Translations under genes and position numbers: made by a program | Origin: a virus | Lineage: Duplodnaviria > Heunggongvirae > Uroviricota > Caudoviricetes | IMG/VR virus record: IMGVR_UViG_3300047666_001531 | Length of the DNA stretch: 64,000 nt | Direction: 5' to 3' (one strand) | The notes under the pieces: model-generated | Seen by the model: the letters and a program-made list of their open reading frames with translations, nothing else | Told to the model about the DNA's origin: nothing | Databases searched by the model: none | Shown: positions 20,119 through 48,669 of the stretch, one piece after another | Position numbering within the stretch: position 1 is the first letter of the stretch | How the letters are laid out: every line of letters starts with the position of its first letter

Positions 20119-20148
20119 TTGCTTTTAATCGTGTACACGAGTATAATA
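20119..20148 (+). promoter_or_regulatory. class-B promoter: TTGCTT, 17 nt spacer containing palindrome TCGTGTACACGA, TATAAT
   Basis: Perfect 12-bp palindrome at 20129-20140 between the hexamers. Confidence 0.55.
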
Positions 20149-20180
20149 AGTACATATTAAATAATCAAGAGAAACAGTTT

Positions 20181-20831
20181 ATGAACAACTCATTGCTAAA
20201 TTATATTGGTCGAATTTATATAGAGTTAAGTCGTGAAATCGAGCATAAAGAAGAGTACATAGATTTAGGTGGCATATATCTTGAGCACGATGGGAGAACT
20301 TTTTATCTTGATGTCGATAATTACACCATCTTAGGTACAGTAATAGAGTGCCGAATGGTGTATGACATAGCCGAACTAAAAGAAACATTTGAAGATTCAA
20401 AGTTTGATTTAACAAAAGAAGATTTACTGAGCAAAGACCTAAAGGCTGAAATATACATCACAGGTGAAAACTATCTCGGGAAAGAACTGGTACGTGTAAA
20501 TTCCATTAAATTATCGATAGAAAACATGGATAGACCTCAGCACATTGACTTGTGTTTAGATGGAACGGTAGAGGAATACCGTTTGCATAAGCATCTTCAT
20601 GATTTTGGTTTTGAAATTGAAGAAGATGAGGGTGTTGCACAGGTCTTTACCGATCTTGATTGTGAAGAAGATGCAGTTAAATTTGAAGAGTCATATGAAG
20701 ATAAGGAGTTGGTGCATTGTGATATAGCATTAGATGAACACGACATAACAGCCAAGGTCTATATGGAGTTGTCTGAACTTATAAAGTTAGATGAAAGTGA
20801 AGCATTACGTATAATACGAAAAGCTGCTTAA
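20181..20831 (+). CDS. hypothetical highly acidic protein, 216 aa
   Basis: D/E-rich throughout. Confidence 0.5.
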   Translation: MNNSLLNYIGRIYIELSREIEHKEEYIDLGGIYLEHDGRTFYLDVDNYTILGTVIECRMVYDIAELKETFEDSKFDLTKEDLLSKDLKAEIYITGENYLGKELVRVNSIKLSIENMDRPQHIDLCLDGTVEEYRLHKHLHDFGFEIEEDEGVAQVFTDLDCEEDAVKFEESYEDKELVHCDIALDEHDITAKVYMELSELIKLDESEALRIIRKAA

Positions 20832-20886
20832 ATAAAAATTTAAATTATTGAAAAAGCACCTCAACCTACAGAGGGGCAAGTAAGTC

Positions 20887-21198
20887 ATGGATGATCATTT
20901 TCAAATAGTAAAAGAGTCATTCCATGAGAATGACGGGCATCATTTCTTTGTTGATAACAAAGGAAAGCTAGTTGTTGCTGATCACAGTATTAACACCGAC
21001 TCCCCTTTGTCGCCTAAAAACGCCAATGATGGGGTTTTGTATGTTGATTTTAATCGTCCGTTGGAGAAGTCAGAGTACGGTTGTTATATGCCGCTAATAG
21101 ACAGCAAAGGCACTCTAACACGCACTATCGCATCTGTTGAAGATGCTCTTTTTGCGCAAGACCATATGCAAACAGTATTTACAGTGTCTAAAGATTAA
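20887..21198 (+). CDS. hypothetical protein, 103 aa
   Basis: gaggggcaagtaagtcATG start. Confidence 0.45.
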   Translation: MDDHFQIVKESFHENDGHHFFVDNKGKLVVADHSINTDSPLSPKNANDGVLYVDFNRPLEKSEYGCYMPLIDSKGTLTRTIASVEDALFAQDHMQTVFTVSKD

Positions 21199-21312
21199 TT
21201 AAGCACCTGGTGACTAAGTAGCGGCAACTAAGCACCTAATTAAAAGAATGCCCCTCTGAATTTGAGTGGTGTTCTTTTGCCATTTTTCTGATTAGATAGA
21301 TGGTAGTATATA

Positions 21313-21348
21313 AAAATGATTGACAAAATAGTTTATTGTGATAAAGTG
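21313..21348 (+). promoter_or_regulatory. class-A promoter
   Basis: aaaaATGATTGACAAAatagtttattgTGaTAAAGT. Confidence 0.6.
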
Positions 21349-21392
21349 TGTGTATTGAAGTTAATTGTACATTTTACATAGGAAAATTCTGT

Positions 21393-21827
21393 ATGACTGC
21401 CTCTTATCCATATGACATTGCAGCTCATCAAAGCCGAGTTGAAGACTTGCCAAAGCTACTATTAACTGCTATTCGCGAGGTAATGGAAGACACTTCATAC
21501 GGTAATGATGAAAGTGCTAAATTTGAAGCGTTATCGCCCAAGAAGGAAGGTATAGCCCTACGGTTGTGGGTAGATAACAAAGATAAGTCACTACGATGCG
21601 AAGAAGACGAATTTAGGTTTCACCTTTCCTACGTTAATGTTGACATAAAAAACCCATCATACACCCCTGAAGATTTTTCATGTTTTATCAATGATTCTAG
21701 CCAATCTTTTTTTGTGTCAAATGACTTTGATGAACTAGCGAAAGAGCTAAGTGATTGTCTTCCGGTGTTCGACAAGAAGTACAAAGCGTTAAGTGGATTA
21801 AAATCGACAGCTAAAGGTACTCCGTAA
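21393..21827 (+). CDS. hypothetical protein, 144 aa
   Basis: Refined to the ATG with aggaaa SD. Confidence 0.45.
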   Translation: MTASYPYDIAAHQSRVEDLPKLLLTAIREVMEDTSYGNDESAKFEALSPKKEGIALRLWVDNKDKSLRCEEDEFRFHLSYVNVDIKNPSYTPEDFSCFINDSSQSFFVSNDFDELAKELSDCLPVFDKKYKALSGLKSTAKGTP

Positions 21828-22072
21828 TGAAAGAGCTATTATCCAACCATTTTTTAACCGTTACACTTGAAGATAAGAGTGGTAAAAAAATTGATGTAGA
21901 TTTGCCACTTGAGCTTTTTGAAGATCGAATTAATGAACTTGTTGAAAGTGAAATTGATTGTAATGATCAAGTGTCAGACAAGGAAAGCAATAAACCTGTC
22001 GCATTAAAATTAACTGGTGGGATTGGTCGTGAAGTGCTGATTAACACAAAAGAAGGGGTTGTAGTGCAATGA
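21827..22072 (+). CDS. hypothetical protein, 81 aa
   Basis: TAATG start/stop overlap with the upstream gene. Confidence 0.4.
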   Translation: MKELLSNHFLTVTLEDKSGKKIDVDLPLELFEDRINELVESEIDCNDQVSDKESNKPVALKLTGGIGREVLINTKEGVVVQ

Positions 22073-22155
22073 GCATTACCAAGCCAAATACCACCAGCCC
22101 ACAAACATGAGAATTATTAAGTTTTGTTTCTTGCATTTTCGTCGGCATTTTAAAA

Positions 22156-22191
22156 TAAAAGATTGACAAAGTGGTTCATTGTGATAAAATT
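22156..22191 (+). promoter_or_regulatory. class-A promoter
   Basis: aaaaGATTGACAAAgtggttcattgTGaTAAAAT. Confidence 0.6.
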
Positions 22192-22232
22192 TGTATATTG
22201 GATCTAACGCACAATTTACAAAGGAAAGCACT

Positions 22233-22370
22233 ATGGCGACATTATTATGCAGAGAATGCGGTAACGAAATTCAAATTGATGACAACGGTATTTCAAACCA
22301 TCTTGATGATGGATTTATAGACCACGAGCAAGATGCTGATCATGTAGCCATTGCCGACGAATCTGAATAA
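22233..22370 (+). CDS. small protein, 45 aa, with CRECGN motif
   Basis: aaggaaagcactATG start. Absent from the ORF track, which has a 60 aa floor. Confidence 0.35.
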   Translation: MATLLCRECGNEIQIDDNGISNHLDDGFIDHEQDADHVAIADESE

Positions 22371-22632
22371 GGAAAACACTGTAATTTAATCCTCAATCAG
22401 TCAGCTGTATTATCACTCTGCAAATGAGACAGTAAGCATGTTTGACTTATCAGTAAAAACTATTACCATAAAGAACAGGAATGATGGTTCGCCCACATTG
22501 GATTTTCAACATCTTAGCGCACACTACCTGTTGAATACTGAAATACAAGAACATCACTCAACCTTAAACATGAATTGCTGGGACTGTTGATGTGTAAAGT
22601 GCGGATATGACAGTTTAATAGAAGGCGATATC

Positions 22633-24129
22633 ATGATCATATATACCAAGTCACACCTCAAAGAGGTGTGTTTGCATTTTACACCTAAATTACAAGAAAT
22701 TTTTGCACGTAACTTTAGTGCTCCCAATGTCAGAGAGTTAGTTGCAAGCCTTACTAGTTGCAATAGTTACGCACATCTCTGCGATTTGTTAAAGCGACAT
22801 CCAGTATCTATCGAGCATAATGAACGAAACAACAAACCGTTTGAATTGCTGTCAGCCAAGCATAAATTATCTGCAACAGACGAACAAAAAAGAAGCTTGC
22901 TATATCTTTGCTACTCACAACCTTTAGCGCTTCTTTACACGCCAAAGTGTGACTTCCCCGTGTCAGAGTATAGCAATAGCTATATGCCCCAATCACAGAG
23001 TCCTATTACTCAACTCAAAGAAAACGCCATTGAGTTTGTCAATTTATCTAAACCGCAAGAAAGCCCTAAGAATGAATATCCTGAGATGTACTTAGATTAT
23101 GATTGCGATATTGATGAAGCAATATCTGAATATATTTACGAGAACATAGATTTTGGTTTTTCATGGGAAGATGCTGAAAAGAAAGGGCTTAGTGAGGATG
23201 AGTGTGATGCTCTTTATAATAAGTGCGTCGAAAAATGGCATGTTGATAATAAAGACAAACTCGATGACATGAAGGTTTATGCTTTACAAAACACCGCATC
23301 TGATCGTTATTCTAGTCTTCTTTCTGAAGGTGGGATCGTTGAAAACTATGCTTTTAAACTTGCAGAACTCAATGGAAGTGAAGCCCTGAAAACAAAGTTG
23401 TTTGAACACTTCTCTAAGGACTGCGCTATTGTCTATTGGCGCACAATTCAACCTGATACTGAGTTTTTGAGTGAAGGGCGACACTTACAAGGTGCGTTTG
23501 TCGGCACGCAAATACTTTACCTTGGGATTTTAGATGACGCTAAATTCACCCCTATAGGCTCTGCAAGCGCATTGACGTTAAACTTTCAATATTCTGATGA
23601 AAACTCTCTATTTCATATATGCGATGCACATTCTGCTTGCATGAATGATGTATACAAGGAAATCCAAAAGCACATAACCGAACAAGGAAGCTCATGGTCT
23701 GAATTCATAGATGAAAAGTCAGAAAACTATGAGTCATGCATTACCCGACTTTGGAGCAAAAAGAACATTTTTGATGATGATCATGTTGATGCATTTATGG
23801 CACAACTATTTGTGACAAGTATTAGCCCTATGAAAGATGAGTTTATTGATGACTTTGAATTTATAGAAGCAACGGGCGCACCGGAGATCCATGAATCTTG
23901 CGTTGTGTTTACGGAGGTTTGTGGAGCAAGTCCTACGGGCGACTTTGTTAACATCATGAATTCGTACAATTTTGAAGAGCTTAGTGAAGAGGATCGCCCT
24001 ACCATGTCCGATGAAGAGTCGCTAGCACAGCAGAAACAACTACAATTCGCTGATTGTCTTGAAAAGGCTTTTAAGGATACCACGGTAGAAGTTGTTTCTT
24101 ATGATCCTTGGTCGCATCCCGTAAGCTAA
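22633..24129 (+). CDS. hypothetical acidic protein, 498 aa
   Basis: gaagg SD. No family recognised. Confidence 0.5.
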   Translation: MIIYTKSHLKEVCLHFTPKLQEIFARNFSAPNVRELVASLTSCNSYAHLCDLLKRHPVSIEHNERNNKPFELLSAKHKLSATDEQKRSLLYLCYSQPLALLYTPKCDFPVSEYSNSYMPQSQSPITQLKENAIEFVNLSKPQESPKNEYPEMYLDYDCDIDEAISEYIYENIDFGFSWEDAEKKGLSEDECDALYNKCVEKWHVDNKDKLDDMKVYALQNTASDRYSSLLSEGGIVENYAFKLAELNGSEALKTKLFEHFSKDCAIVYWRTIQPDTEFLSEGRHLQGAFVGTQILYLGILDDAKFTPIGSASALTLNFQYSDENSLFHICDAHSACMNDVYKEIQKHITEQGSSWSEFIDEKSENYESCITRLWSKKNIFDDDHVDAFMAQLFVTSISPMKDEFIDDFEFIEATGAPEIHESCVVFTEVCGASPTGDFVNIMNSYNFEELSEEDRPTMSDEESLAQQKQLQFADCLEKAFKDTTVEVVSYDPWSHPVS

Positions 24130-24290
24130 TCACTATAGAAAAAGTTGAATTAAGTAGTTCAGCTTTTTCTATCTGAAATTCACTCAGTATCACTAGAGAA
24201 CATTCCTCTGTCGTGAGGTTTTATGCGGTGTTGCTAATTTGTAGTATAAAATATATACTACATGGGAATAAGGCAACATTTGGGATTGAT

Positions 24291-25031
24291 ATGCGAGGAT
24301 ATAGACCGATAAAACGGCTGATCAGAGCGCAAAAAAAGGGCGAAGGTAAAGCCGAGGTTGCAACAAAGAAACAGTTTAAAAACATTCTTTGGCAATCTTC
24401 TCGTGGTTCGCTTGGCAGGAGAAATGTAGCGATAGTTTGGATGTTGTTCGGTAGTGGTTGCAGGATTAACGAAGTGGCAAAATTCAAGGTTTCTGATCTA
24501 ATCAGAGAAACCAATGAATTAAGAACTACTTTTGTTATCAAGGGTGGTTACACCAAAACAGGCAAGCCAAGAGCCGCTTATATTCTCTATAAGAGCCACC
24601 GCAGAGCGATTGAGGCGTGGATTGATGAACTTATAGAAGAAGGTGTAGGTCAATCTGGTGAAGAGTCTTATAGAGGCTTACGAAAAGATTATCCTTTATT
24701 TGCCATTACTAAAAAAGGTCGATATTGGCGCAAGATGGCATTTAGGGACAAAAAGTACAAAGATGCTGAAGGGAACATTAAAACCACAAAGGTTTGTGGC
24801 TCGTTACAAAATCTGATTAGTGAGCTATTTAAGAACGCTGGTTTACATGGCGGCTCATCACATTCAGGGCGAAGAACGCTTGCTACTTGGCTTGACCAAA
24901 AAGGGATTGAGCTTAAAACGATACAACTTATTTTGGGGCATGAAGATGCCAACATGACACTTGAATATATTGATCCCAATTTTGAACGTATACAAGCTGC
25001 TTTTGATAAAACATTAATCAATATTGATTAG
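24291..25031 (+). CDS. tyrosine recombinase, catalytic domain only, about 247 aa
   Basis: GCRINEV (Arg I), HSGRRTLAT (HxxR) and LGHEDANMTLEYI (His-II plus nucleophile Tyr). No N-terminal core-binding domain. Confidence 0.65.
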   Translation: MRGYRPIKRLIRAQKKGEGKAEVATKKQFKNILWQSSRGSLGRRNVAIVWMLFGSGCRINEVAKFKVSDLIRETNELRTTFVIKGGYTKTGKPRAAYILYKSHRRAIEAWIDELIEEGVGQSGEESYRGLRKDYPLFAITKKGRYWRKMAFRDKKYKDAEGNIKTTKVCGSLQNLISELFKNAGLHGGSSHSGRRTLATWLDQKGIELKTIQLILGHEDANMTLEYIDPNFERIQAAFDKTLINID

Positions 25032-25043
25032 AGGTAAATTAAA

Positions 25044-25259
25044 ATGACTGAGAAAAAAGAGAAACCTAACAAAGATCTTGAGTACAACAAGAAACGCATA
25101 CCTATCTTACGTGTTGAGGCTACAACGGCTGATAGCGAAGATGAAATTGAAGAAATGTTTCAGATGAAAGACCATGTTATTGAAAAATCAGGTTCGGCAA
25201 AACAAGGCATTATTGACATGTATAGGTTTGCCAAAAAGAACGGTTATTTTAATAAATAA
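25044..25259 (+). CDS. hypothetical protein, 71 aa
   Basis: gaggtaaattaaaATG start. Confidence 0.4.
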   Translation: MTEKKEKPNKDLEYNKKRIPILRVEATTADSEDEIEEMFQMKDHVIEKSGSAKQGIIDMYRFAKKNGYFNK

Positions 25260-25262
25260 TAA

Positions 25263-25291
25263 TTGACTTTCTCGTGTACACGAGTATAATG
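25263..25291 (+). promoter_or_regulatory. class-B promoter: TTGACT, 16 nt spacer containing palindrome CTCGTGTACACGAG, TATAAT
   Basis: 14-bp perfect palindrome at 25271-25284. Confidence 0.6.
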
Positions 25292-25337
25292 TTTGGTATA
25301 GAAATTAAACAAATTTAGTTAAACAAGGAATAAACAC

Positions 25338-25583
25338 ATGTCAGAAATAAACGATAAAGCGATTGAGTTTATTGCTAATAACTTATCGAACAAAGCAGCG
25401 CAAGAAGAAGGTTATGTAGGTGCTCCTAGATGGGGTTGCCTAAGAGAAGATCTAAAAGAGAAGTTTTTAGGTGAGGCAAAGTTGCTTGTTGCCGAATGGT
25501 ATAATGACGAAATGAAAGCTTTGTCAGCTAGAAAGCCCACCAGCGACTTACTAAAGAATGCGACTATTTTAACAAGGGAATAA
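25338..25583 (+). CDS. hypothetical protein, 81 aa
   Basis: caaggaataaacacATG start. Confidence 0.45.
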   Translation: MSEINDKAIEFIANNLSNKAAQEEGYVGAPRWGCLREDLKEKFLGEAKLLVAEWYNDEMKALSARKPTSDLLKNATILTRE

Positions 25584-25588
25584 ATATA

Positions 25589-25840
25589 ATGAAAAGAAAG
25601 ACAATATACGCAGTGTTAATTAGCACCCTTTTCCTATCCGCACTCCATTTCTTTTTGTCTTGCATATACCACTATGCAACATCGTCAAGCGATGTATCAG
25701 GGGTTTTCGATCTATTAACTTGGTCTTACCCATATCGAAGAGATGTAGCTATTGTTAACTTAATGATAGTTTTTTCTGGCATATCTGCCTCTGTGATTGG
25801 TTATATAGTCAGACTGCATGAAATGGCGACAGGTGAATAA
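25589..25840 (+). CDS. small membrane protein, 83 aa
   Basis: Two hydrophobic helices. aagggaataaatataATG start. Confidence 0.4.
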   Translation: MKRKTIYAVLISTLFLSALHFFLSCIYHYATSSSDVSGVFDLLTWSYPYRRDVAIVNLMIVFSGISASVIGYIVRLHEMATGE

Positions 25841-25844
25841 AAAG

Positions 25845-26042
25845 ATGGAAATTAAGAGCAATGAAATTCAACTTATAATGTCTAGTTTGCTTTTGCAAAA
25901 ACAAGCCCTGACCGAAGCTGGCGGAGCTGCACTCTCAAAAACAAAACTGTGCGATACTTTATTTGCAAAACTTGAAACTTTTTTGGGTGAGAGTAACGTC
26001 AAAATAACATCGGACTCTACCAATATTGCGACAAGGGAATAA
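25845..26042 (+). CDS. hypothetical protein, 65 aa
   Basis: Refined to the ATG with aggtgaataaaaag SD. Confidence 0.4.
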   Translation: MEIKSNEIQLIMSSLLLQKQALTEAGGAALSKTKLCDTLFAKLETFLGESNVKITSDSTNIATRE

Positions 26043-26046
26043 AGAA

Positions 26047-26427
26047 ATGTTAGCAGACGATCTAAGGAAAGCAATTTTCACCAACCTGAATCTTGTCAAA
26101 GAACTTTTACTTACTCATGGTGATTTGAAGGTAATTTCGTTTGTATCAGAAAAGATTAACGCTACCCCTTGTGATGTAGCAAAATTCAAAGAAGTTAACG
26201 TTAATAATGCCTCAACGAAGTTAAAGAAATTATTTGAACAAGGGTACTTAACTCGAAGTGAAAGTAAGTCATCTAGCGGTGGCATTGAGTTTATCTATTC
26301 GGTAGCCCATGTAATCAAGCCCAAATTGAATAAACCTTGCCCTATTTGCGAAAACGAAGAGTGCTTACCACGAGAAGATTGGTGCGGCTCATGCTGTACT
26401 GATTTTTATGAAAACGTACAAGGTTAA
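26047..26427 (+). CDS. hypothetical protein, 126 aa, with C-terminal Cys cluster
   Basis: CPICENEEC...CGSCC. acaagggaataaagaaATG start. Confidence 0.45.
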   Translation: MLADDLRKAIFTNLNLVKELLLTHGDLKVISFVSEKINATPCDVAKFKEVNVNNASTKLKKLFEQGYLTRSESKSSSGGIEFIYSVAHVIKPKLNKPCPICENEECLPREDWCGSCCTDFYENVQG

Positions 26428-26447
26428 TAAGAAAGGAATAAATAGCA

Positions 26448-26744
26448 ATGAACGACTTTATATTGAAGCACAAAATAACATTCGACAAACAATTCGCATA
26501 TTTGTATTTTTACTATCTGATAAGTTTCTTTTGCGCCGCTGCTATGCCTAAGACATTTTTCGGCTTTTTGGTTGTGGTGGCTTTGGTGTCTGTTCCTTTT
26601 TCTCTAATGCCCAAAGTTGTGAAAAATGCCGTCTTTGGAATTGGTGGTGGTACGCAAGAGGAATCTAAAAACGCAGCATTTAAAATGAAATGTTGCTGTC
26701 TATTCATGGGTGTATTAATAATTACTATGAAGGTAATGCTGTAG
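26448..26744 (+). CDS. small membrane protein, 98 aa
   Basis: aggaataaatagcaATG start. Hydrophobic. Confidence 0.4.
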   Translation: MNDFILKHKITFDKQFAYLYFYYLISFFCAAAMPKTFFGFLVVVALVSVPFSLMPKVVKNAVFGIGGGTQEESKNAAFKMKCCCLFMGVLIITMKVML

Positions 26745-30378: not shown

Positions 30379-30409
30379 ACGTAATATCGCCACGATGGTG
30401 ATATTACGT
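30379..30409. promoter_or_regulatory. inverted repeat ACGTAATATC, 11 nt spacer, GATATTACGT upstream of yqiJ
   Basis: 10-bp perfect inverted repeat 25 nt upstream of the yqiJ ATG. Confidence 0.45.
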
Positions 30410-30433
30410 GGCAAAGAAGCTAGGAAAACCTAT

Positions 30434-31054
30434 ATGTTCATTGAATTTTTAACCCACGAGGCGAATGCCCCGTATTTTTTCGCGCTATGCTTTTTAGTAC
30501 TGCTTTTCGCTTTTGAAATACTAGGTATGCTTATTGGTATGAGTGTAAGTCATGCGTGTGACAGTATCATTGATTTTGATGTTGATACCGACATGGGTGG
30601 TCATTTATCACTATTGGGGCTTGGTAAAGTGCCGTTGATTGTGTGGTTGACGTTTTTGATGGGCTTGTTTGTTATTTTTGGTTATGGCTTTAATGCGGTC
30701 ACCAATTCGATTGTTGGCTATACACCAATATGGATATCGATAGTGCCTGTTTCTATTGCCGCTTTTGTTTTTAATGGTGTTTTATGCCGTGCTTTTGCAA
30801 AGGTGTTCCCTAAGCTTGAGACAACGGCGGTAAGTACGGACACATTTAAGGGTAGAGTGGCTAGGTTAACGCTTGGTGATGCTACGTACACAGATTTTGC
30901 TATGGGTGTTGTGCAAGATGAACATGATCATACTCATAACATAAGAGTTCAAGCGATGGATGATGGCGTTGTCATCGAACAAGGTAATGAAGTCATTCTC
31001 GTTGAAAAAGTAAAGGATAGCACTATTTGGTTAGCTATCCCTTATGAAATATAA
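30434..31054 (+). CDS. yqiJ: YqiJ-like inner-membrane protein (NfeD-like partner of flotillin), 206 aa
   Basis: Refined start MFIEFLTHEANAPYFFALCFLVLL. Four TM N-terminal half plus soluble C-terminal beta domain. Immediately upstream of the flotillin gene, as in E. coli yqiJK. Confidence 0.5.
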   Translation: MFIEFLTHEANAPYFFALCFLVLLFAFEILGMLIGMSVSHACDSIIDFDVDTDMGGHLSLLGLGKVPLIVWLTFLMGLFVIFGYGFNAVTNSIVGYTPIWISIVPVSIAAFVFNGVLCRAFAKVFPKLETTAVSTDTFKGRVARLTLGDATYTDFAMGVVQDEHDHTHNIRVQAMDDGVVIEQGNEVILVEKVKDSTIWLAIPYEI

Positions 31055-31114
31055 GTCGCATTTTGCGCATATTTTTTTTAAATATTTAAACTATCTATTT
31101 TGGAGTAAGAGTTA

Positions 31115-32896
31115 ATGGAATTAAGTAATATTGTTGGTTATGCGGTCGCCGCAGGTGTCGTTTTAATTGTGCTTTTTATTGTTGGATTTTCTTTATCGAG
31201 AATGTATCGAAAATCGACCAAAGATACAGCGTTGGTTAAGACAGGTTTAGGTGGTGAAAAAGTCATCACAACTGGCGGATTTTTGCTGATACCTGGGTTT
31301 CAAGAATTAATGAAGGTCAACATGCGTACCTTGCGCATCCGTGTTGAGCGTAAAGAAAATGAGGGTCTGATCACGTTGGACTGTATGCGTGTGGACATAG
31401 CAAGTGATTTCTTTGTACGCGTAGCGTCAGATGATGAATCAATTAAAAAGGCCGCACAAGCACTAGGCGATCGTTTATCAGATCCAGATAAAGTAAAAGA
31501 GTTGATGGAGTCAAAGTTCGTTGGTGCCCTTCGTTCAGCAGCCGCATCAATGTCAATGGATGAGTTGCATAAAAACCGCCCTGAATTTGTTTTAGCGGTG
31601 CAAAAAGCAATCGCTGAAGAACTTGCCCAAAATGGTCTTGAGCTTGAGTCAGTTTCACTAACCAGCTTCGACCAAACTAAGCTAGATTTCTTTGATCCTG
31701 ACAATGCATTTGACGCCCAAGGTCGAGCGAAGCTTGCTGAAACTATTGAAGGTCGCAAGAAGCGCACTAACGAAGTTGAACAAGAAAACCGTATTGCCAT
31801 CGAGCAGCGCAATCTTGAAGCTGAAAAAGAGTCACTAGCGATCAAGCAGCAAAAACGTGAAGCTGAAATTTTGCAAGAGCAAGAAATTCAAGTTAAAGAA
31901 GCTGAGCAAAAAGCGTTAATTGCTGGCAAACGTGAAGAGCAAGAACAAAAAGAGCGTCAAGCTGAAATTTCGAAAAACCGAGCTATCGAATCGTCTGAAA
32001 TCGAAAAGAAATTGGCGTTAGATAAAATGAAAATTGAGCAAAATCGTGATTTGGAAGTTGCAGAGCAAGATCGCCAAATCATAATTGCACAAAAATCTGA
32101 GGCGGAAAGTGCCGCTCGTGCAAAAGCCGCAGAAGCGGAAAAAGATCGGGTTGAAAAAGAAGAGGCGGTAATCACTGCCGGAAAAGTAGCCGGCGCAGAA
32201 CGTCAGAAACAGATAGATGTTATCGATGCTCGCCGTAAAGCTGAACGTGAAGCTGTTGCCATTACTGTTGCTGCTGAAGCCTCGAAACAAGCGGCGCAAG
32301 ATGATGCTGAATCTAAGTTAATCGTTGCCAAAGCTGATGCTGATGCAATTCTGATGCGTGCAGACGCTGATGAGAAGAAATATGACGTTGATGCAGCTGG
32401 TCGTCGTAAGTTAAATGAAGCGGATAACGCCCTGAGTGCTGAACAAGTAGAGCTACGTCGTGCATTAGCTACGTTAGAAGCATTGCCACAAGTTATTGCG
32501 CAAGCGGTTGAGCCTCTTAAGAACATCGATGGTATCAAAATCTTGCAAGGTTATAACGGCACCAGCAATGTTGGTTCGGGTAATGATGGTAGTGGTGCTT
32601 CTGGCAACCCTATGTCACAGTTAACGAACGCTGCATTAGCATACAAAGCACAATCACCTGTAGTTACCGCCTTGCTTAGTGAGTTAGGTCTTGGTGGTTC
32701 GCTTGAAGAGCTTGTAGATGGCAAATCAATTGCAAGTTTGATGTCTAACGCGACCAATAGTGTTAAGTCAATCGCTGACAGCACACCAAAGGCTGATAAT
32801 GGTTCAGCTGATGTGAGTGACAATCCTGATTTTACGTCGGTTGAAAATTTCACAACAGCAGAAGCTGACGTTTCAGAACGAAACGCCGACAGCTAA
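31115..32896 (+). CDS. yqiK: flotillin-family SPFH/band-7 protein (YqiK-like), 593 aa
   Basis: N-terminal TM, SPFH domain (LVKTGLGGEKVITTGG...), then a long coiled-coil of EA/EQ/KR repeats typical of flotillins. Confidence 0.7.
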   Translation: MELSNIVGYAVAAGVVLIVLFIVGFSLSRMYRKSTKDTALVKTGLGGEKVITTGGFLLIPGFQELMKVNMRTLRIRVERKENEGLITLDCMRVDIASDFFVRVASDDESIKKAAQALGDRLSDPDKVKELMESKFVGALRSAAASMSMDELHKNRPEFVLAVQKAIAEELAQNGLELESVSLTSFDQTKLDFFDPDNAFDAQGRAKLAETIEGRKKRTNEVEQENRIAIEQRNLEAEKESLAIKQQKREAEILQEQEIQVKEAEQKALIAGKREEQEQKERQAEISKNRAIESSEIEKKLALDKMKIEQNRDLEVAEQDRQIIIAQKSEAESAARAKAAEAEKDRVEKEEAVITAGKVAGAERQKQIDVIDARRKAEREAVAITVAAEASKQAAQDDAESKLIVAKADADAILMRADADEKKYDVDAAGRRKLNEADNALSAEQVELRRALATLEALPQVIAQAVEPLKNIDGIKILQGYNGTSNVGSGNDGSGASGNPMSQLTNAALAYKAQSPVVTALLSELGLGGSLEELVDGKSIASLMSNATNSVKSIADSTPKADNGSADVSDNPDFTSVENFTTAEADVSERNADS

Positions 32897-34068: not shown

Positions 34069-34392
34069 ATGTCATTAGAGTTAATGTCAGATGAACAAGT
34101 GCTAGAGGCGCTTGGTGAAAAGTTTGAAGCGTTTAGATTAAGCAAAGGGCTTCGCGATCAGGATGTACGTGAAACTGGTGGTGTAAGTAAAGACGCTCTA
34201 CATAAATTTAAAAATCAGGGTGGTAATATCACGTTGATTAATTTTGTTAAAATTCTTCGGGGTTCTGGCGAGCTTTCTGCGCTTGAGCGATTGTTCAATG
34301 TCCCCCCTAGTCTCCCTAAAAAAGACAGTAAGAAGCCTGTAGCAAGGATCCGCAAGAAGAAGGTTAATAAGCCGATACGTTGGAAGGAGTAG
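34069..34392 (+). CDS. hipB: HipB-like XRE-family HTH antitoxin, 107 aa
   Basis: Small HTH protein immediately upstream of, and 6 nt from, hipA. ggctttaacc direct repeats in its promoter region. Confidence 0.55.
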   Translation: MSLELMSDEQVLEALGEKFEAFRLSKGLRDQDVRETGGVSKDALHKFKNQGGNITLINFVKILRGSGELSALERLFNVPPSLPKKDSKKPVARIRKKKVNKPIRWKE

Positions 34393-34398
34393 CAATAA

Positions 34399-35772
34399 AT
34401 GTCTCAAGTTATAGAAGTTAAATTGTGGGGTGTCACCGTTGGCCGCATGGGTTATGTGGATGACACTGGTGTTGCGTTATTTGAATACGACGAAGCATTT
34501 TTAGGCTCAGATGTATGTATTTCGCCAATCCACATGCCAACAAGCCAAGAACGTTTTCAATTCCCTGACATAAGTGAAAAAACCTTCCACGGTCTACCAG
34601 GTGTGTTTGCAGATTCTTTGCCTGATACATTTGGTAACCAGCTGATTGACTTGTACATGGCTGAAAAGGGCATTGCATCGAATGAAATCACCGCCCTTGA
34701 TCGACTGCTTTATATCGGCAATAGAGGCATGGGTGCTTTGGAGTACTCACCTTCAACAAAATTTGGTGAAGAAACGCCAACAGTAGCGTTAGATATCCAG
34801 ATGCTTTCAGAGTTAGCTTCTATGGTGGCATCTAAATCGAAAGAAAAAAGCGATAAAATTCTGCATTCAAAAGATGCGGCTACCGCGATCAAGTTACTAC
34901 GTATTGGTAGTAGTGCCGGCGGTGCACGTTCAAAAGCGTTGGTAAGTACGTCACCAAATGGTGAATTTCTTGATGGTACTTACGACCACGGTACGGATCA
35001 CAAGTACTGGTTGATGAAATTCGACAGTGAGGGTAATCGTGATCGTGATGGTTTCGATCCTAAAGGTATGACGAAGGTTGAGTATATCTACGGTGAGATT
35101 GCAAAAAACTTGGGGCTTGATGTGCCTAATTTTGATTATCACGAAGAAAACGGTGATTTTCATTTCATGATTGAACGTTTTGACCGGTTGAAAGGTGAAA
35201 ATAAGATGGACAAGGTGCATTATGCGTCTTGGTCTGGCCTTGAGCATGCTCACAGGGACACTACGGGTGCATATTCTTATGAACAGCTAATCTTGCTAGC
35301 AAGAAAGTTAAAATTGCCTCAGACGTCGATTGAGGAGCTTTATCGTCGAGCTGTTTTCAATGTAATTGGTCGCAATCAAGATGATCACACTAAGAACTTT
35401 GGCTTTTTAATGAATAAGTCTGGTGAGTGGAGTTTATCAAAAGCGTTTGACTTAACGTATTCTTATGATCCTCAAGGTCGTTGGACACGTGTTCATCAGA
35501 TAAAACTTAATGGCAAGCAAGATGATTTCACTTATGATGATTTGGCGAAGCTTGGGCGTCACTGTAACCTGTCTTTGCCTGCAATTAGAGAGATAGTTGC
35601 AAGAACGGTAGATGGCTTTAATGCTTTTGATGATCTGGCCAAAAAATTGGAAGTGACACCAGAGTTAAGAACGACAGTTATTCAAAATATGAGAACGAGC
35701 AGTATTGTTGTGCCTCAGCCTCAAAAACCTAGCAAAACTGTGGATGCACCCAGCTTTAAAAAAGGGCGTTGA
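34399..35772 (+). CDS. hipA: HipA-family serine/threonine kinase toxin, 457 aa
   Basis: N-terminal LWGVTVG...ALFEY module and catalytic block QDDHTKNFGFLM...AFDLTYS. Confidence 0.8.
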   Translation: MSQVIEVKLWGVTVGRMGYVDDTGVALFEYDEAFLGSDVCISPIHMPTSQERFQFPDISEKTFHGLPGVFADSLPDTFGNQLIDLYMAEKGIASNEITALDRLLYIGNRGMGALEYSPSTKFGEETPTVALDIQMLSELASMVASKSKEKSDKILHSKDAATAIKLLRIGSSAGGARSKALVSTSPNGEFLDGTYDHGTDHKYWLMKFDSEGNRDRDGFDPKGMTKVEYIYGEIAKNLGLDVPNFDYHEENGDFHFMIERFDRLKGENKMDKVHYASWSGLEHAHRDTTGAYSYEQLILLARKLKLPQTSIEELYRRAVFNVIGRNQDDHTKNFGFLMNKSGEWSLSKAFDLTYSYDPQGRWTRVHQIKLNGKQDDFTYDDLAKLGRHCNLSLPAIREIVARTVDGFNAFDDLAKKLEVTPELRTTVIQNMRTSSIVVPQPQKPSKTVDAPSFKKGR

Positions 35773-40315: not shown

Positions 40316-40344
40316 CGTTAAAATGAGGTTAGGATAAGTTTTGT

Positions 40345-41928: not shown

Positions 41929-41941
41929 TTTTTAAGTCGCG

Positions 41942-42546: not shown

Positions 42547-42762
42547 TTAAGCCGCTATTTTTAGTTCTGTAACATTGCTTATGCGTTCGACATTGATACA
42601 GCCTTTGTAGGCACTTGTGATCTTAACGGATTCGCCAGCAATGATATCGCTGTCAGTGTTTAAAAACCAAATACGATCAGCAATGACAATAGAATTGCCA
42701 AGCCCTGAATGCTTAGGCTTTGTGGTAATATCTTCTTTTATTTTAATGACCATACCGGCCAT
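42547..42762 (-). CDS. hypothetical protein, 71 aa
   Basis: ORF only. Confidence 0.25.
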   Translation of the reverse strand: MAGMVIKIKEDITTKPKHSGLGNSIVIADRIWFLNTDSDIIAGESVKITSAYKGCINVERISNVTELKIAA

Positions 42763-42932
42763 AGATTTGAAAAGCTCTTTTCTTCAATTTCTTTGTTTTT
42801 TGTTTTATATGCCGTTAATCCAATCAACGTAAATAATGCTACTAGTCCAATGTAAATCATATATAACTCCAAATTAATGTAGAGTTATTTTAGTCGAATT
42901 GCCTTTAAATTCAACTAAATCCACCTTATAGA

Positions 42933-42969
42933 TAAAAGATTGACAAAATTATCAAATTGAAATATTATG
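42933..42969 (+). promoter_or_regulatory. class-A promoter (TTGACA, 17 nt spacer, TATTAT)
   Basis: aaaaGATTGACAAAattatcaaattgaaaTATTAT. Confidence 0.55.
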
Positions 42970-42997
42970 AATGTATGAGTAAACAAGGCTTAAAAAG

Positions 42998-43732: not shown

Positions 43733-43765
43733 ATGATTGACAATAAGTATCATTATGATAATATG
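43730..43765 (+). promoter_or_regulatory. class-A promoter
   Basis: agaTAAATGATTGACAAtaagtatcattaTGaTAATAT. The upstream gene's TAA stop lies at its 5' edge. Confidence 0.6.
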
Positions 43766-43812
43766 TGTATGTATTATAAATTAACTCATAAACTACACAC
43801 ACAGGACTCATT

Positions 43813-45597: not shown

Positions 45598-45614
45598 GTT
45601 AAAGTGGTAATCAA

Positions 45615-45639
45615 AGGTCAGTTTGTCTGGCCTTTTTTA
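45615..45639 (+). terminator. terminator hairpin plus T6 after 45597
   Basis: ggtcag..ctggcc stem then tttttt. Confidence 0.5.
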
Positions 45640-45643
45640 TGCA

Positions 45644-45670
45644 AAAAAAAAGCCGGTGAAAACACCGGCG
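45644..45670 (-). terminator. terminator for minus-strand 45764..46261 (gccggtg-aaaa-caccggc, then T9 on minus)
   Basis: Perfect 7-bp stem with an A9 run on the plus strand, equal to T9 on the minus strand. Confidence 0.6.
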
Positions 45671-45763
45671 AAAAGTAATCAGTAAACACACGTTACATTC
45701 TCATGTAGCACTAATATAATATCTCAAAATCATAATTATCCAACACCACCAGATAAAAATGTG

Positions 45764-46261
45764 TTATTTGCTAAATTTCATATGGGTGTTGTGAAAGGCA
45801 CCGTGATAACCGCGTTCAAAATGGATTGCGGCCATTGGAAAACCTAAGTCAAAACCTATATCTCGTCCAGAGCCTAATATCAGCTGTTCTCTAACGCCGG
45901 CAATATCTTTTTCAAGCTTCATTCGAGGGATGGAGCTGTATAATTTTGATAACGGGATCAGTAGCACTGTGTTCTGCGCAACAGAAAACGCCTTTTCCAT
46001 GACTTTGGTCAAATCTGACCAAGTAGGATTAGTAACAATCCAATCAACCTGTTCATTGAATTCGTAAAAATCACGTCCATCTTCAATTTCGCACCACAGT
46101 GTGCCTTTTGGCAATTCATTGTAAAACACACCAGAGCCTCGAAACGGTTCAAGTATCTTACCGGTAGGCTGAAAGTGCTTTATGATGGCTCGCGCTATTT
46201 CAGGCTTGGTATAGTGTACATCAGAGTAGTCAGTCATTGCAGAGGCAGTGGTCATAACCAT
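45764..46261 (-). CDS. putative SAM-dependent N6-adenine DNA methyltransferase-like protein, about 165 aa
   Basis: LEPFRGSGVF resembles the SAM-binding motif I. IVTNPTW resembles catalytic motif IV (D/N/S)PP(Y/F/W). Unusually short. Confidence 0.4.
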   Translation of the reverse strand: MVMTTASAMTDYSDVHYTKPEIARAIIKHFQPTGKILEPFRGSGVFYNELPKGTLWCEIEDGRDFYEFNEQVDWIVTNPTWSDLTKVMEKAFSVAQNTVLLIPLSKLYSSIPRMKLEKDIAGVREQLILGSGRDIGFDLGFPMAAIHFERGYHGAFHNTHMKFSK

Positions 46262-46262
46262 G

Positions 46263-46640
46263 TTATGTTGCCCCTGCAATACAAAGTGAATCGGTATTTA
46301 CCTGAGCGATATACTCAAGTTCCATTGTGGTGCCAGTATTGATTGTTTTTTGCTTTTGCAATTCACTAAACAGAATTTGACCGTTACAAAAAAAAGCTTG
46401 TAAGCCTGGTAGATGCATCAGTTCATTGGAATACCACTCAAACGGTGGCTGTCCACTCAAGTAGCGAGCAATTTGCTTAGGATCGTTACGCATTTGCTTT
46501 ATACGCAACATTTCATGTGCGTTGTCAAAAATTTCTATTGCTAAACGGTAAATTCCGGTGGCAGTGACATAGGCAAACTGCATATGTTCGTTTTGAAACT
46601 TGCACGCGAACAGTGCGCCAGAGGTTGTTTTTACACTCAT
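46263..46640 (-). CDS. hypothetical protein, 125 aa
   Basis: Overlaps the start of the downstream MTase-like gene, so operonic. Confidence 0.4.
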   Translation of the reverse strand: MSVKTTSGALFACKFQNEHMQFAYVTATGIYRLAIEIFDNAHEMLRIKQMRNDPKQIARYLSGQPPFEWYSNELMHLPGLQAFFCNGQILFSELQKQKTINTGTTMELEYIAQVNTDSLCIAGAT

Positions 46641-46719
46641 GGGTATAATCCTTTATATTTAAATTCCACAAGTTTATTTTAGCATGGTAGAGTGAGAATC
46701 CATCTAGCGAAAACCTAAA

Positions 46720-46756
46720 TAAAAGATTGACAAATTATCATAATGATGTCAATATG
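46720..46756 (+). promoter_or_regulatory. class-A promoter (-35 conserved, -10 uncertain)
   Basis: aaaaGATTGACAAAttatcataatgatgtcaatat. Contains an internal inverted repeat ATTGACA..TGTCAAT. Confidence 0.4.
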
Positions 46757-46816
46757 CATTTAATGATATGCAATATTAATGCATTAACAACTTTATATAA
46801 AATTAGGAAGTCGAAT

Positions 46817-48283
46817 ATGTTGAAATTAACAACCATTCTTGCAGTTACTTTATTAAGCGTTTCAGCTCTTGCTGAAAACGTGAGTATGTTTAACATTCAC
46901 TATAACGACTCATCCGGCACAGGAGTTCGCAGCACTGAACCCTTTACAACAAGTGAAGGTCGTGTGACCACTGTTGGAGAATACAGAAAAGAACTTATTG
47001 AACACACTACGCGTGCTGTTTCATTGCAGTTCAATCATGTTGTCCCTCATAAGCTTGTTCTTGATTTTAAAGCACCTAGCGGTTATGCAGCTTTGACTTC
47101 GGGACCCTCTTTTACTGAGTTTAGTGAATACGACCGTAAAGATAAATTCGGGTTTCTTGAAGTAGGGCGTTCTTATCCAAGCACGCTTGTTAGTGCGCTT
47201 AAATCGATTAAAAACTCTCACGATGAAGATGCGGTTGTTTCGTTTGCTGATAATGTCGATGATTTGCGTACCAATCGAGAACACGTATATCCTCCTATAG
47301 TTTATTCTGCCTACCACGAAATGATGCATGTACTAGGTTTTGTTGGTACAGACTGTTTGGGTAAGTGCATACCTGAGCCGACCAGTAAAAAAGGTCACAT
47401 TTCACCTTATCTTTATTATAATGATAATGGCACTGTAAAGGCTTTTGAGTCGCTTTCAATGACCAAGAAAACTCATGCTTACATGTCAACTGACAAACTG
47501 TGGTTTGGTGGTAGTGAGACGTCAAGAAACGCTGCTATGAAAGAGCTTTCAGCAGGTCATACTAATGGCTTTGTTTATATGTTTGCCACTCCTAGCGTTG
47601 AAACGGGTAGTGTAGATCCACAAGCGGGCAATCATTTTTCGTTTGAAGTTCAGCCGGCGCAGTTGATGCGTTCTTCACGTGCTAGCACTGTTGATATCGG
47701 CATGGCGGCTTATTTACTTTGTGATGCGGGTTGGTGTCAAAGAGGTGGTAAAGTTATTGAGCAGTCGGTAAAGGCTGTATTGAATGAAAATGCGAGCAGC
47801 GACACAGAATCGGTTATTGATATTACGGTAAGCGAAAACCTGAATGTTGGTGTAAAAGAGTTTGAGTTAACAATTATCCCTGATGCGGGGATGAATGTGA
47901 TAGAATTTCAAGATCCAGATGGTGTTTGCTCGGAGAGAAATGGTGGTTATTACTGTTTAGGTGGTCTGAACCCTTACGAGAAAATGAATGCAAGACTTAT
48001 TGTAACGCCATCAAATGAATATACTTTAAAGGGTGATTTGCGTTCTACCGGTTTTGATGTTGATCGTAACGGTTTTAATAACATTTTGGATGTTACATTG
48101 TCTAAAGCGGCAGCCCCACTACCTGTACAAACAGCACCTGTAACCAGTGCTCCTGCGAAAACTGAAAATGGTGGCGGCGGTAGCGGCGGTGGTTCGATGT
48201 CGTTTGTAATGTTGCCTTTATTGCTAGTTGCCTTAATAAGACGTAAGCACGTTGTTGGTAAAGCAGCTGCGGGATCTAAATAA
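46817..48283 (+). CDS. secreted zinc metalloprotease with GlyGly-CTERM sorting signal, 488 aa
   Basis: Signal peptide MLKLTTILAVTLLSVSALA. AYHEMMHVLGF HExxH motif. C-terminus GGGGSGGGSMSFVMLPLLLVALIRRK matches Gly-Gly, TM helix, basic tail of rhombosortase substrates. Confidence 0.6.
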   Translation: MLKLTTILAVTLLSVSALAENVSMFNIHYNDSSGTGVRSTEPFTTSEGRVTTVGEYRKELIEHTTRAVSLQFNHVVPHKLVLDFKAPSGYAALTSGPSFTEFSEYDRKDKFGFLEVGRSYPSTLVSALKSIKNSHDEDAVVSFADNVDDLRTNREHVYPPIVYSAYHEMMHVLGFVGTDCLGKCIPEPTSKKGHISPYLYYNDNGTVKAFESLSMTKKTHAYMSTDKLWFGGSETSRNAAMKELSAGHTNGFVYMFATPSVETGSVDPQAGNHFSFEVQPAQLMRSSRASTVDIGMAAYLLCDAGWCQRGGKVIEQSVKAVLNENASSDTESVIDITVSENLNVGVKEFELTIIPDAGMNVIEFQDPDGVCSERNGGYYCLGGLNPYEKMNARLIVTPSNEYTLKGDLRSTGFDVDRNGFNNILDVTLSKAAAPLPVQTAPVTSAPAKTENGGGGSGGGSMSFVMLPLLLVALIRRKHVVGKAAAGSK

Positions 48284-48284
48284 T

Positions 48285-48536
48285 ATGGCCACGAGAACGC
48301 TGAAAATAATGCATGTAGCAAAAACCAAGGATGAATGCCAAGAGCTTGTTGATAAAACAACAGAAGCGCTAAAGGCGCTTCACCAAGGTATAGTCGTAAA
48401 TCCTTTTGAAATGAGAGCAACAAGCGTCCCTGATTATCGATGTGATATTCATATTAGCAAGGTGAATGGTGTAGCTTGGAACAGTTACTACAAAGCGATA
48501 AATTCGGTTAAGGCTGTACCTTACGATTTTATATAG
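48285..48536 (+). CDS. hypothetical protein, 83 aa
   Basis: ATG directly after the upstream TAA. Confidence 0.35.
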   Translation: MATRTLKIMHVAKTKDECQELVDKTTEALKALHQGIVVNPFEMRATSVPDYRCDIHISKVNGVAWNSYYKAINSVKAVPYDFI

Positions 48537-48634
48537 ATTTTTTTTTGGAGTAGATGATGAAAGATGAAAAGGTCAAACTTAGCGGAAAATGCACAATCCA
48601 GGTTGATACTGGTAAGGGCACCGTTTAAATAATT

Positions 48635-48669
48635 CCAATATTATATCGTGTACATGAATATAATATTGG
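48635..48669 (+). promoter_or_regulatory. class-B-like promoter inside a 35-bp near-perfect palindrome CCAATATTATA-tcgtgtacatga-ATATAATATTGG
   Basis: -10 TATAAT at 48659-48664. Core TCGTGTACATGA is related to the class-B operator. Confidence 0.5.

Follow-up and report, generated by a model that had tools for sequence, protein, structure and literature searches.

A 12-bp promoter-spacer palindrome as the probable operator of a plasmid-encoded 71-aa RHH-like repressor

The 64,000-nt stretch of DNA analysed here, referred to below as the window, raises the question of what role a perfect palindrome may play when it lies between the −35 and −10 hexamers of promoters heading runs of small genes, and which protein might bind it. 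A phage origin of the element was rejected: no DNA or protein match was found in 50,697 phage records, and matches to PHROGs were limited to two families of unknown function. Contigs related to the window carry F-type transfer genes, ParA, KfrA, toxin-antitoxin pairs and type IV CRISPR. The lack of matches to phage records and the plasmid genes on related contigs together indicate that the element is a plasmid.

The coordinates and palindrome sequences given for three sites in the initial annotation were reproduced. Promoter 1 (20119..20147, plus strand) consists of the −35 hexamer TTGCTT (20119-20124), the candidate operator TCGTGTACACGA (20129-20140), a single G and the −10 hexamer TATAAT (20142-20147), with a 17-nt spacer and an ATG downstream at 20181; its architecture is that of 98 sites in related DNA described below. 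Promoter 2 (25263..25290, plus strand) has TTGACT (25263-25268), the same TCGTGTACACGA (25272-25283), G and TATAAT (25285-25290), with a 16-nt spacer and an ATG at 25338, and its palindrome extends to CTCGTGTACACGAG (25271-25284). The atypical site 3 (48635..48669, plus strand) carries the variant TCGTGTACATGA (48646-48657), followed by A, TATAAT (48659-48664) and an ATG at 48706. In all three, the palindrome is followed by one base and then TATAAT. A sigma-70 promoter with the dyad wholly inside a 16-18-nt spacer is seen at sites 1 and 2, for which the original description holds. A clear promoter was not supported at site 3, where the palindrome has one asymmetric mismatch, no acceptable −35 was found (best candidates CCAATA/CAATAT) and the consensus scanner called no promoter. 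The C-to-T variant is confined to site 3 among all sites of the family. What had been taken for a 35-bp near-perfect palindrome at 48635-48669 resolves into perfect 12-nt inverted arms, CCAATATTATAT (48635-48646) and ATATAATATTGG (48658-48669), with 11 nt between them and an axis offset by half a base from that of the core palindrome, and is not one coherent palindrome. Exact matches to TCGTGTACAYGA number three in the window against 0.02 expected from dinucleotide-preserving shuffles, a count reached in none of 100 shuffles, and no further site with 0-1 mismatches in promoter-like context was found in the window.

Promoter 2 is followed by a conserved leader, GTTTGGTATAGAAATTAAACAAATTTAGTTAAACAAGGAATAAACAC (25291..25337, plus strand), with the ribosome-binding site AAGGA, which recurs behind many promoters of the family and in which no stable RNA fold was found (z 0.7 to −0.04). 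A terminator or RNA hairpin was considered and rejected: although a scanner picks out a weak stem at CTCGTGTACACGAG, the stem is not followed by a T-run, and the leader has no stable fold.

The unit behind promoter 1 (20181..21198, plus strand) contains two ORFs, 20181-20831 (216 aa, acidic, with no Pfam match) and 20887-21198 (103 aa); the next promoter after it, at 21320, belongs to the window's other class. Behind promoter 2 lies a unit of five ORFs (25338..26744, plus strand) of 81, 83 (membrane), 74, 133 and 98 (membrane) aa, the 133-aa product showing a weak winged-helix signal and a Cys-rich tail. The array behind site 3 (48706..53122, plus strand) encodes products of 61 (membrane), 290 (Q_salvage), 220, 198, 70 (Cys-rich), 216, 59, 199 and 66 aa; at 53270 comes a promoter belonging to the other class, which breaks the array as originally drawn (48706-54460). 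The term small-gene operons is apt in part, but fits poorly with the length of the first gene after site 1, with the ORFs of 290, 220, 216 and 199 aa behind site 3 and with the promoter at 53270; the further characterisation of the three units as specifically runs of tiny membrane and Cys-rich ORFs was not supported as written.

In ~603 kb of related DNA, taken from marine metagenomes and isolates of Alteromonas, Paraglaciecola, Psychromonas and Shewanella, 104 distinct sites differ from the palindrome by no more than one base, and all 104 lie in a promoter spacer; many of these loci were fetched with a 19-mer containing the palindrome, and conservation at those sites is by construction. A −10-like hexamer lies exactly 1 nt downstream in 98 of the sites, the other six still having a TTG −35 ahead; TTG occurs in the −35 zone in 86, and the distance from the −35 is about 4 nt. 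On related contigs, 10-11 such promoters are found in ~20 kb. Promoters of the family have a −35 like TTGCAA, a 16-17-nt spacer, the −10 TATAAT and an A-rich AAATAA box upstream, and these near-consensus elements with optimal spacing fit repression rather than activation. When 12 orthologous promoters were aligned, the 12-mer was the sole unbroken invariant block, with both hexamers varying, and there are no conserved inverted arms outside it. With the operator-independent anchor AAATAA-N2-4-TTG, 45 spacers contained the 12-mer exactly, three with one mismatch, none with two or three, and the remaining 60 with at least four. The spacer-embedded repressor operator suggested in the initial annotation thus gains comparative support, from the promoter association of every site and from a palindrome that stays invariant where hexamers vary, repression itself being our reading of the sequence. 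A known operator was considered too, but a literature search for the 12-mer, 10-mer and 19-mer returned nothing relevant. Furthermore, the search of 185,579 species genomes with the 19-mer yielded only one plausibly related contig, and this essential absence from chromosomes argues against a host regulon.

A search for a nearby regulator led to a 71-aa protein encoded directly upstream of the promoter at 25263, which co-occurs with the motif across genera and has divergent relatives beside different palindromes. The gene of this candidate cognate repressor (25044..25259, plus strand) ends with a stop codon 12 nt before the operator of promoter 2, and its product has a Lys-rich N-terminal tail, an extended segment and two helices (RHH-like). 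Among loci fetched by DNA motif alone, its family was the most widely shared protein family, present on 13 contigs versus 4-5 for the next. In a set of 72,556 plasmids, one carried the promoter and one a homologue of the 71-aa protein, and this was the same plasmid, with both on the same strand 1.2 kb apart. In 13 of 20 loci the gene of the family stops 0-12 nt short of the palindrome; an operator-promoter upstream of the gene was found in 14 loci, 159-4903 nt ahead. The same pairing is seen in Psychromonas and Shewanella inventionis isolates. Gene and promoter are physical neighbours and so travel together, and a shared mobile module, not a functional link, could account for their co-occurrence. 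Spacer palindromes of other sequence follow the divergent homologues P0029 (TCGCGGTGCGCGA) and P0025 (TCGCGCCCCGCGA), and P0033 precedes 13-nt TCG..CGA elements that are less clearly palindromic; P0018 (locus L069), a subfamily-A-like homologue, has no such palindrome downstream. This co-variation of regulator and operator rests on three regulator subfamilies.

The AlphaFold model of the 71-aa protein (75-sequence alignment, pLDDT 88) shows an extended segment at residues 18-31 and helices at 32-49 and 52-65, that is, the RHH topology of an N-terminal beta-strand and two helices with a tight turn, the strand appearing as an extended segment in the monomer model; no HTH is present in it. None of the RHH profiles (Pfam RHH_1, Arc, Omega_Repress, ParG and others) matched, 12 family members giving only chance-level E-values of at least 0.015. 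The PDB profile search produced no sequence match at E up to 10, PHROGs and Foldseek searches were negative, and an exhaustive HMM search of 1.84 billion representatives recovered 16 relatives only, none of which linked it to a known family. A single 12-bp palindrome is an unusual target for RHH proteins, which as a rule form higher oligomers on repeated sites. The 133-aa winged-helix-like protein (26026-26427) was rejected as the regulator, with sub-threshold Pfam hits only and one homologue in the fetched loci, a much weaker case than that of the 71-aa family.

Sequence, positional invariance, promoter association, co-occurrence, co-variation and fold-level resemblance are what the comparisons show. 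Given these, we consider it somewhat better than an even prospect that a dimeric repressor encoded on the plasmid, most likely the 71-aa RHH-like protein, uses TCGTGTACACGA as its operator and controls many small-gene operons on conjugative (mega)plasmids. The palindrome occupies a fixed place in the spacer of strong sigma-70-type promoters, from about −25 to −14, with one base left between it and the −10 hexamer, and protein sitting on it would block RNA polymerase. On related plasmids, where the 71-aa gene lies downstream of another such promoter, negative autoregulation would result; in the window the nearest operator upstream of the gene is 4.9 kb away with other promoters between, and direct autoregulation is therefore not evident there. 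The regulon would comprise numerous short operons on Alteromonadales conjugative (mega)plasmids, their genes small and for the most part unknown, and entry of such a plasmid into a repressor-free cell would lead to a burst of expression followed by shut-down. What we infer from these patterns is that the protein binds, does so as a dimer, represses, regulates its own gene and allows a burst when the plasmid enters a cell.

The palindrome might instead serve another plasmid regulator, for example an HTH protein, or a host factor, with the 71-aa protein acting as a recombinase accessory, partition adaptor or relaxosome-type RHH; we regard this as possible, though unlikely. Directly upstream of the 71-aa gene, in the window and in six other fetched loci, lies a gene for a tyrosine recombinase of the Phage_integrase family (24213..25031, plus strand), the homologues of which begin MRGYRP, so that its true start is probably 24291. 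An accessory role is at odds with loci L065, L066, L067, L074 and L075, where the recombinase is missing beside the 71-aa gene. Against another binder speak the lack of any other protein family in more than five contigs among the motif-fetched loci and the change of operator sequence with the 71-aa subfamily, and against a host factor the near-absence of the 19-mer from chromosomes noted above.

It is quite improbable that the 12-mer has no dedicated binder and is kept either as part of a recently duplicated, spreading promoter cassette (a mobile promoter) or as a spacer that tunes RNA polymerase. Promoter copies carry an apparent fossil of the end of the regulator gene: TTTGATAAATAA stands ahead of the −35 even in copies that have no regulator gene in front of them, and in L066 an inserted ORF is flanked by a duplicated gene end and a degenerate promoter copy; module duplication therefore does occur. 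A binder is nonetheless suggested by a 12-mer that is exact across genera while flanking positions, −35, −10 and leaders have diverged freely, by the perfect dyad symmetry of the conserved block, suggestive of a symmetric binder, and by different yet dyad-symmetric spacer elements in the same place beside related regulator subfamilies.

The L066 insertion with its duplicated junction can also be read in favour of the palindrome being a crossover site at which the adjacent tyrosine recombinase shuffles small-gene cassettes, with promoter association secondary. The recombinase gene adjoins in several loci, genes behind orthologous promoters differ completely among relatives (for example the window versus L003 and L062), and the 12-nt inverted arms and 11-nt centre of site 3 loosely resemble a recombinase core site. 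Integron and tyrosine-recombinase core sites have inverted arms around an asymmetric 6-8-bp crossover region and are independent of promoter geometry. The family sites, by contrast, are locked to the promoter hexamers on both sides, lack conserved inverted arms outside the 12-mer, are perfectly symmetric without the asymmetric central spacer, and abound in many loci from which the recombinase is missing, all of which makes this explanation very unlikely. An activator of MerR type is barely credible: members of that family do bind dyads in the −35/−10 spacer, but their spacers are over-long (19-20 nt against 16-17 nt here), the near-consensus hexamers and A-rich upstream box need no activation, and no MerR-like protein co-occurs in the motif-fetched loci.

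Returning to the repressor-operator reading, it is conceivable, if doubtful, that the promoter-operator module (~50 bp, often with the fossil of the regulator's last codons) doubles as a portable junction at which plasmids acquire, lose and swap small-gene cassettes, by homologous recombination between repeated modules or by the neighbouring tyrosine recombinase. Captured cassettes would automatically come under the same repressor, in an integron-like gene-capture array whose repressible promoters are built in and common to the whole plasmid.

If the main reading is true, the conjugative megaplasmids of marine Alteromonadales (Alteromonas, Paraglaciecola, Psychromonas, Shewanella, Pseudoalteromonas, Colwellia) would have a new repressor-operator pair that appears to govern much of their complement of small genes without known function. 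The regulon would be recognisable by one 12-bp word and should be switched by one 71-aa protein, and burst expression of gene arrays on plasmid entry becomes a testable idea. The repressor, operator and strong promoter would form a compact, apparently orthogonal set, with natural specificity variants (TCGTGTACACGA versus TCGCG-N3-CGCGA) of use for studying how RHH proteins read DNA. Global plasmid repressors acting on repeated palindromic operators are already well known as a regulatory logic; the candidate 71-aa repressor is previously undescribed and the plasmid group little known.

Among known systems, KorA of IncP-1 plasmids (RK2/RP4) is a small dimeric repressor with a 12-bp perfectly symmetric operator, OA, at several promoters including that of its own operon, and perfect (class I) and one-mismatch, lower-affinity (class II) operators coexist (PMC2665229, PMC4889941). 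These classes parallel the two perfect sites and the one-mismatch site of the window. KorA, however, is a 101-aa HTH protein with the operator GTTTAGCTAAAC rather than TCGTGTACACGA, no similarity of the 71-aa family to it was found in the PDB-chain profile search, KorA structures included, and no KorB-like partner is evident; relatives of the window plasmid also have many more sites, 10-11 in ~20 kb, at one fixed spacer position. A KorA-like core, TTTAGCTAAA, occurring once in the window at 11998, has no promoter context and was dismissed as a chance AT-rich palindrome.

Omega of pSM19035 (inc18) is a 71-aa RHH protein whose N-terminal tail is unstructured; acting as a global repressor, it shuts down its own gene along with several promoters of the plasmid. 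The 71-aa RHH-like candidate, with its N-terminal tail, has omega's length and appears from the model to share its layout. Omega differs in binding arrays of 7-bp heptads (WATCACW), direct or inverted, and in being a centromere-binding protein as well, whereas here each promoter has one 12-bp palindrome and no repeat arrays; the omega system is reviewed in PMC9499535. Arc of phage P22 (immI region) acts at one divergent promoter pair, not at a plasmid-wide set, with two dimers on a 21-bp operator, and no sequence similarity of the 71-aa protein to Arc was detectable. Conjugative plasmids such as IncW R388 (ArdK, StbA, KorA) use several repressors with negative feedback and show a transient burst on entering a new host. 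In the window, too, promoters fall into two classes with a separate dyad for each, although proteins and operators are unrelated to those of R388 and the burst is here only predicted. By analogy, the best reading is that the putative 71-aa repressor would work like KorA, omega and Arc.

The three palindromic promoter regions reported in the initial annotation were confirmed in sequence and position, all on the plus strand of the window. Site 1 consists of TTGCTT (20119-20124), TTAA, TCGTGTACACGA (20129-20140), G and TATAAT (20142-20147), and site 2 of TTGACT (25263-25268), TTC, TCGTGTACACGA (25272-25283), G and TATAAT (25285-25290). The placement of the palindrome between -35 and -10 hexamers therefore stands for these two, but not for site 3, where TCGTGTACATGA (48646-48657), A and TATAAT (48659-48664) are preceded by no acceptable -35 and the consensus promoter scanner makes no call. 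Unlike sites 1 and 2, the palindrome of site 3 has one asymmetric mismatch, and the 35-bp palindrome described around it (48635-48669) is actually formed by two perfect inverted arms of 12 nt each, 11 nt apart, with an axis half a base off that of the core dyad. At all three sites a ribosome-binding site and an ATG follow within 33-47 nt. TCGTGTACAYGA had exact matches at these three sites only (0.02 expected from shuffles), and looser searches of the window revealed no further site in promoter context.

Scanning of 185,579 species genomes with TCGTGTACAYGARTATAAT returned 8 loci, of which only one, a Paraglaciecola contig orthologous to the 25263 locus, was plausibly related. The same scan of marine metagenomes yielded 51 loci, often with several sites per contig (e.g. 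at least 8 on 325 kb, 4 on 25 kb and 3 on 93 kb). The consensus of 48 non-redundant sites reads AAATAA-nn-C-TTGCAA-tta-TCGTGTACACGA-G-TATAAT, downstream of which come a short leader, AAGGAAT and ATG. The 48 sites were picked by the search pattern itself, and the informative evidence comes from unselected sites, loci fetched by protein homology and an independent anchor. A literature search for the operator sequence retrieved nothing relevant.

The initial annotation suggested searching for a nearby regulator, and a candidate gene adjoins site 2. When the ORFs from every locus fetched by the motif were clustered, the protein family shared by most contigs (13) was one of approximately 71 aa, whose window member is 25044-25259 (+); second among real genes came a tyrosine recombinase (approximately 250 aa), on 4 contigs. 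In 13 of the 20 loci with the 71-aa gene its stop codon lies 0-12 nt upstream of the palindrome, which makes the -35 overlap the gene's 3' end. A second operator-promoter was found in 14 loci, 159-4903 nt upstream in the same orientation, and would put the gene under its own operator; the minimal unit, in Shewanella inventionis, comprises the operator-promoter, an 81-aa ORF and then the regulator gene. Among the 72,556 plasmids of PLSDB, promoter and homologue were each present on exactly one, the same Alteromonas mediterranea plasmid MRG65-300, where they share a strand at a distance of 1.2 kb.

The family is small (16 representatives at 50% identity among 1.84 billion proteins; 132 clusters at 90%), unannotated and devoid of Pfam domains, with source names that indicate Shewanella, Pseudoalteromonas, Psychromonas, Colwellia and Endozoicomonadaceae. 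Pfam, PHROGs, a PDB profile search and Foldseek returned no match for it. The AlphaFold model, built on a 75-sequence alignment, was confident (pLDDT 88), with a Lys-rich tail, an extended segment (18-31) and helices at 32-49 and 52-65, the predicted topology being that of a ribbon-helix-helix (RHH) monomer; only this topology and weak structural hits support membership of the RHH superfamily. Several plasmids (loci L062, L067, L072 and others) carry two 71-aa paralogues per contig (P0015 + P0024, P0010 + P0102, P0029 + P0109, P0056 + P0122), which may differ in specificity. A 133-aa protein from the operon after promoter 2 (26026-26427) gave sub-threshold winged-helix signals (DnaD_N, MarR); it has a Cys-rich C-terminal tail, CPICENEECLPREDWCGSCC, and a single homologue, in locus L015.

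Divergent 71-aa homologues have a promoter at the same place downstream with an altered spacer element: cttgctttgg-TCGCGGTGCGCGA-C-TATAAT for P0029 (L072), cttgctatag-TCGCGCCCCGCGA-C-TATAGT for P0025 (L073) and, for P0033 (L071), three 13-nt TCG..CGA elements, less clearly palindromic, before TATATAAT or TATACAGT. Across subfamilies the outer TCG/CGA is constant and the inner bases differ, while the putative strand changes in parallel, from PILRVE to QVLKVE to VVMRVQ, with a constant YN-KR arm. Such a pattern, sampled in three subfamilies, would be expected of a cognate protein-operator pair. Counting against co-variation, P0018 (locus L069), a homologue similar to subfamily A, has no such site downstream; the promoter after P0018 (L069 300-420) reads TTGACA-TCAAATTGATAAC-GATAAT, its spacer holding an 11-bp dyad, ATCAAATTGAT, in place of TCGTGTACACGA, and may reflect gene relocation or a further type of operator. 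It is possible that a different protein binds the palindrome, given that the large contigs were seen only in part; the 71-aa protein encoded beside site 2 is a plausible cognate regulator.

Extra sites in the same loci, outside pattern selection, retained the exact 12-mer with -10 hexamers such as TATAGT, TACAAT, TATACT and CATGAT, and the 12-mer was present again in protein-fetched loci (L062, L065-L068, L074, L075), with 10-11 sites in approximately 20 kb in L067 and L068. Spacers collected with an operator-independent anchor (AAATAA-N2-4-TTG) were bimodal: 45 exact, 3 with one mismatch, none with two or three and 60 with at least four. In 12 aligned orthologous promoters the palindrome was the sole unbroken invariant block, the -35 (TTGACT, TTGCAA, TTGATT, TTGCGC, TTGTTT and others) and the -10 both varying. 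Conservation of a promoter cassette through recent duplication is one explanation; the module does get duplicated, as in L066, but all parts other than the dyad have diverged, which speaks against it. An inserted ORF separates regulator gene and promoter in L066, with a duplicated terminus of the gene and a degenerate copy of the promoter on its flanks, and promoter copies retain the regulator's terminal codons as a fossil, TTTGATAAATAA (L066 10200-10600; L068 5745-5770 and 7330-7355). Together these features suggest cassette turnover at the promoter modules. Some of the promoters share a long conserved leader, GGTATAGAAATTAAACAAATTTAGTTAAACAAGGAATAAA, even where they precede different genes (window 25291-25337 and 48665-48705; L003, L048, L058, L059, L062, L067, L068); its RNA showed no stable fold, and it might act as a translation signal or as a second site for a protein.

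Across 603 kb of family DNA, a census counted 104 distinct sites that match the palindrome with no more than one mismatch. A -10-like hexamer lay exactly one base downstream in 98 of them, 86 of which had TTG in the -35 zone, and the remaining 6 stood behind a TTG -35; none was outside promoter context, extending the promoter association beyond the window. This strict geometry and the absence of conserved arms argue against a recombinase site. Immediately before the regulator gene, the window (24213-25031; start probably at 24291), L012, L035, L059, L062, L064 and L068 encode the tyrosine recombinase, which is absent from that position in L065-L067, L074 and L075; it may resolve plasmid multimers or exchange cassettes.

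The reading of a spacer-embedded repressor operator was supported and extended by these comparisons. Spacer-palindrome promoters combine hexamers close to consensus with a spacing of 16-17 nt, which is optimal, and an A-rich box upstream, and should be strong by themselves. An activator site is disfavoured by this spacing, since MerR-type activation needs spacers of 19-20 nt; a dimer bound around -25 to -14 would block access of RNA polymerase, making repression far more likely. Site 3, with its mismatch and missing -35, would combine a weak promoter with a lower-affinity operator. First genes after these promoters had no Pfam match in 63 of 66 cases, the other three including a C5 DNA methylase and a protein with a GmrSD_N domain. 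By analogy with IncP and IncW plasmids, we infer negative feedback, with a burst of expression when the plasmid enters a recipient that lacks the repressor. The motif marks a putative regulon spread over Alteromonadales conjugative megaplasmids.

More numerous in the window is another promoter class, (a/t)GA-TTGACA-...-TTATCATTATGATAAAGT, with an extended -10 (TGnTAAAnT), at 1268, 18063, 19022, 21320, 22163, 33019, 40924, 43737, 53270, 58997 and 61584 (+) and 29458, 17347 and 14707 (-). A separate dyad lies within its spacer and -10 (perfect over 15 bp at 19022, TTATCAT-T-ATGATAA), so the plasmid seems to carry two or more classes of operator. Both promoter classes co-occur in relatives, such as L044 with 10 class-1 and 2 class-2 sites.

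The window had no DNA or protein match in 50,697 phage records and matched only two PHROG families, both of unknown function, and phage identity was rejected on these grounds. Its DNA relatives in PLSDB are A. mediterranea megaplasmids only. Among contigs encoding candidate-regulator homologues, L073 has ParA and F-type transfer genes (TraL, TraE, TraK, TraB, TraV, TraC), L072 has KfrA, ParE/Phd and an LPD7 giant protein, and L071, like MRG65-300, has type IV CRISPR. With these plasmid hallmarks, the megaplasmid relatives and the lack of phage matches, the window is part of a conjugative (mega)plasmid from a marine gammaproteobacterium. Besides an MFS transporter, a dUTPase and the recombinase, it carries accessory cargo: a pair of YqiJ-like and flotillin/SPFH proteins (30395-32896), HipA preceded by a 107-aa ORF without Pfam match, possibly HipB (34069-35772), a queuosine-salvage (Q_salvage) protein, second gene after site 3 (48937-49809), and full-length DsbD (55992-57818). 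In translation, a 171-aa ORF (45764-46279, -) contains TNPTW, resembling the catalytic NPPY/W of small N6-adenine DNA methyltransferases.

The proposed system resembles Arc of P22, an RHH repressor with its operator between -35 and -10, and omega of pSM19035, a 71-aa RHH global plasmid repressor. It is also similar to KorA/OA of IncP-1, with a 12-bp symmetric operator at seven promoters, perfect and imperfect operator classes and an autoregulated repressor gene; site 3, of putative low affinity, has a parallel in the class II KorA operators of RP4 (PMC2665229). Membership of the KorA and omega families was rejected, as protein and operator differ in both cases and similarity tests failed. Global repressor-operator systems are a known type, of which the candidate protein-operator pair would be a new member.
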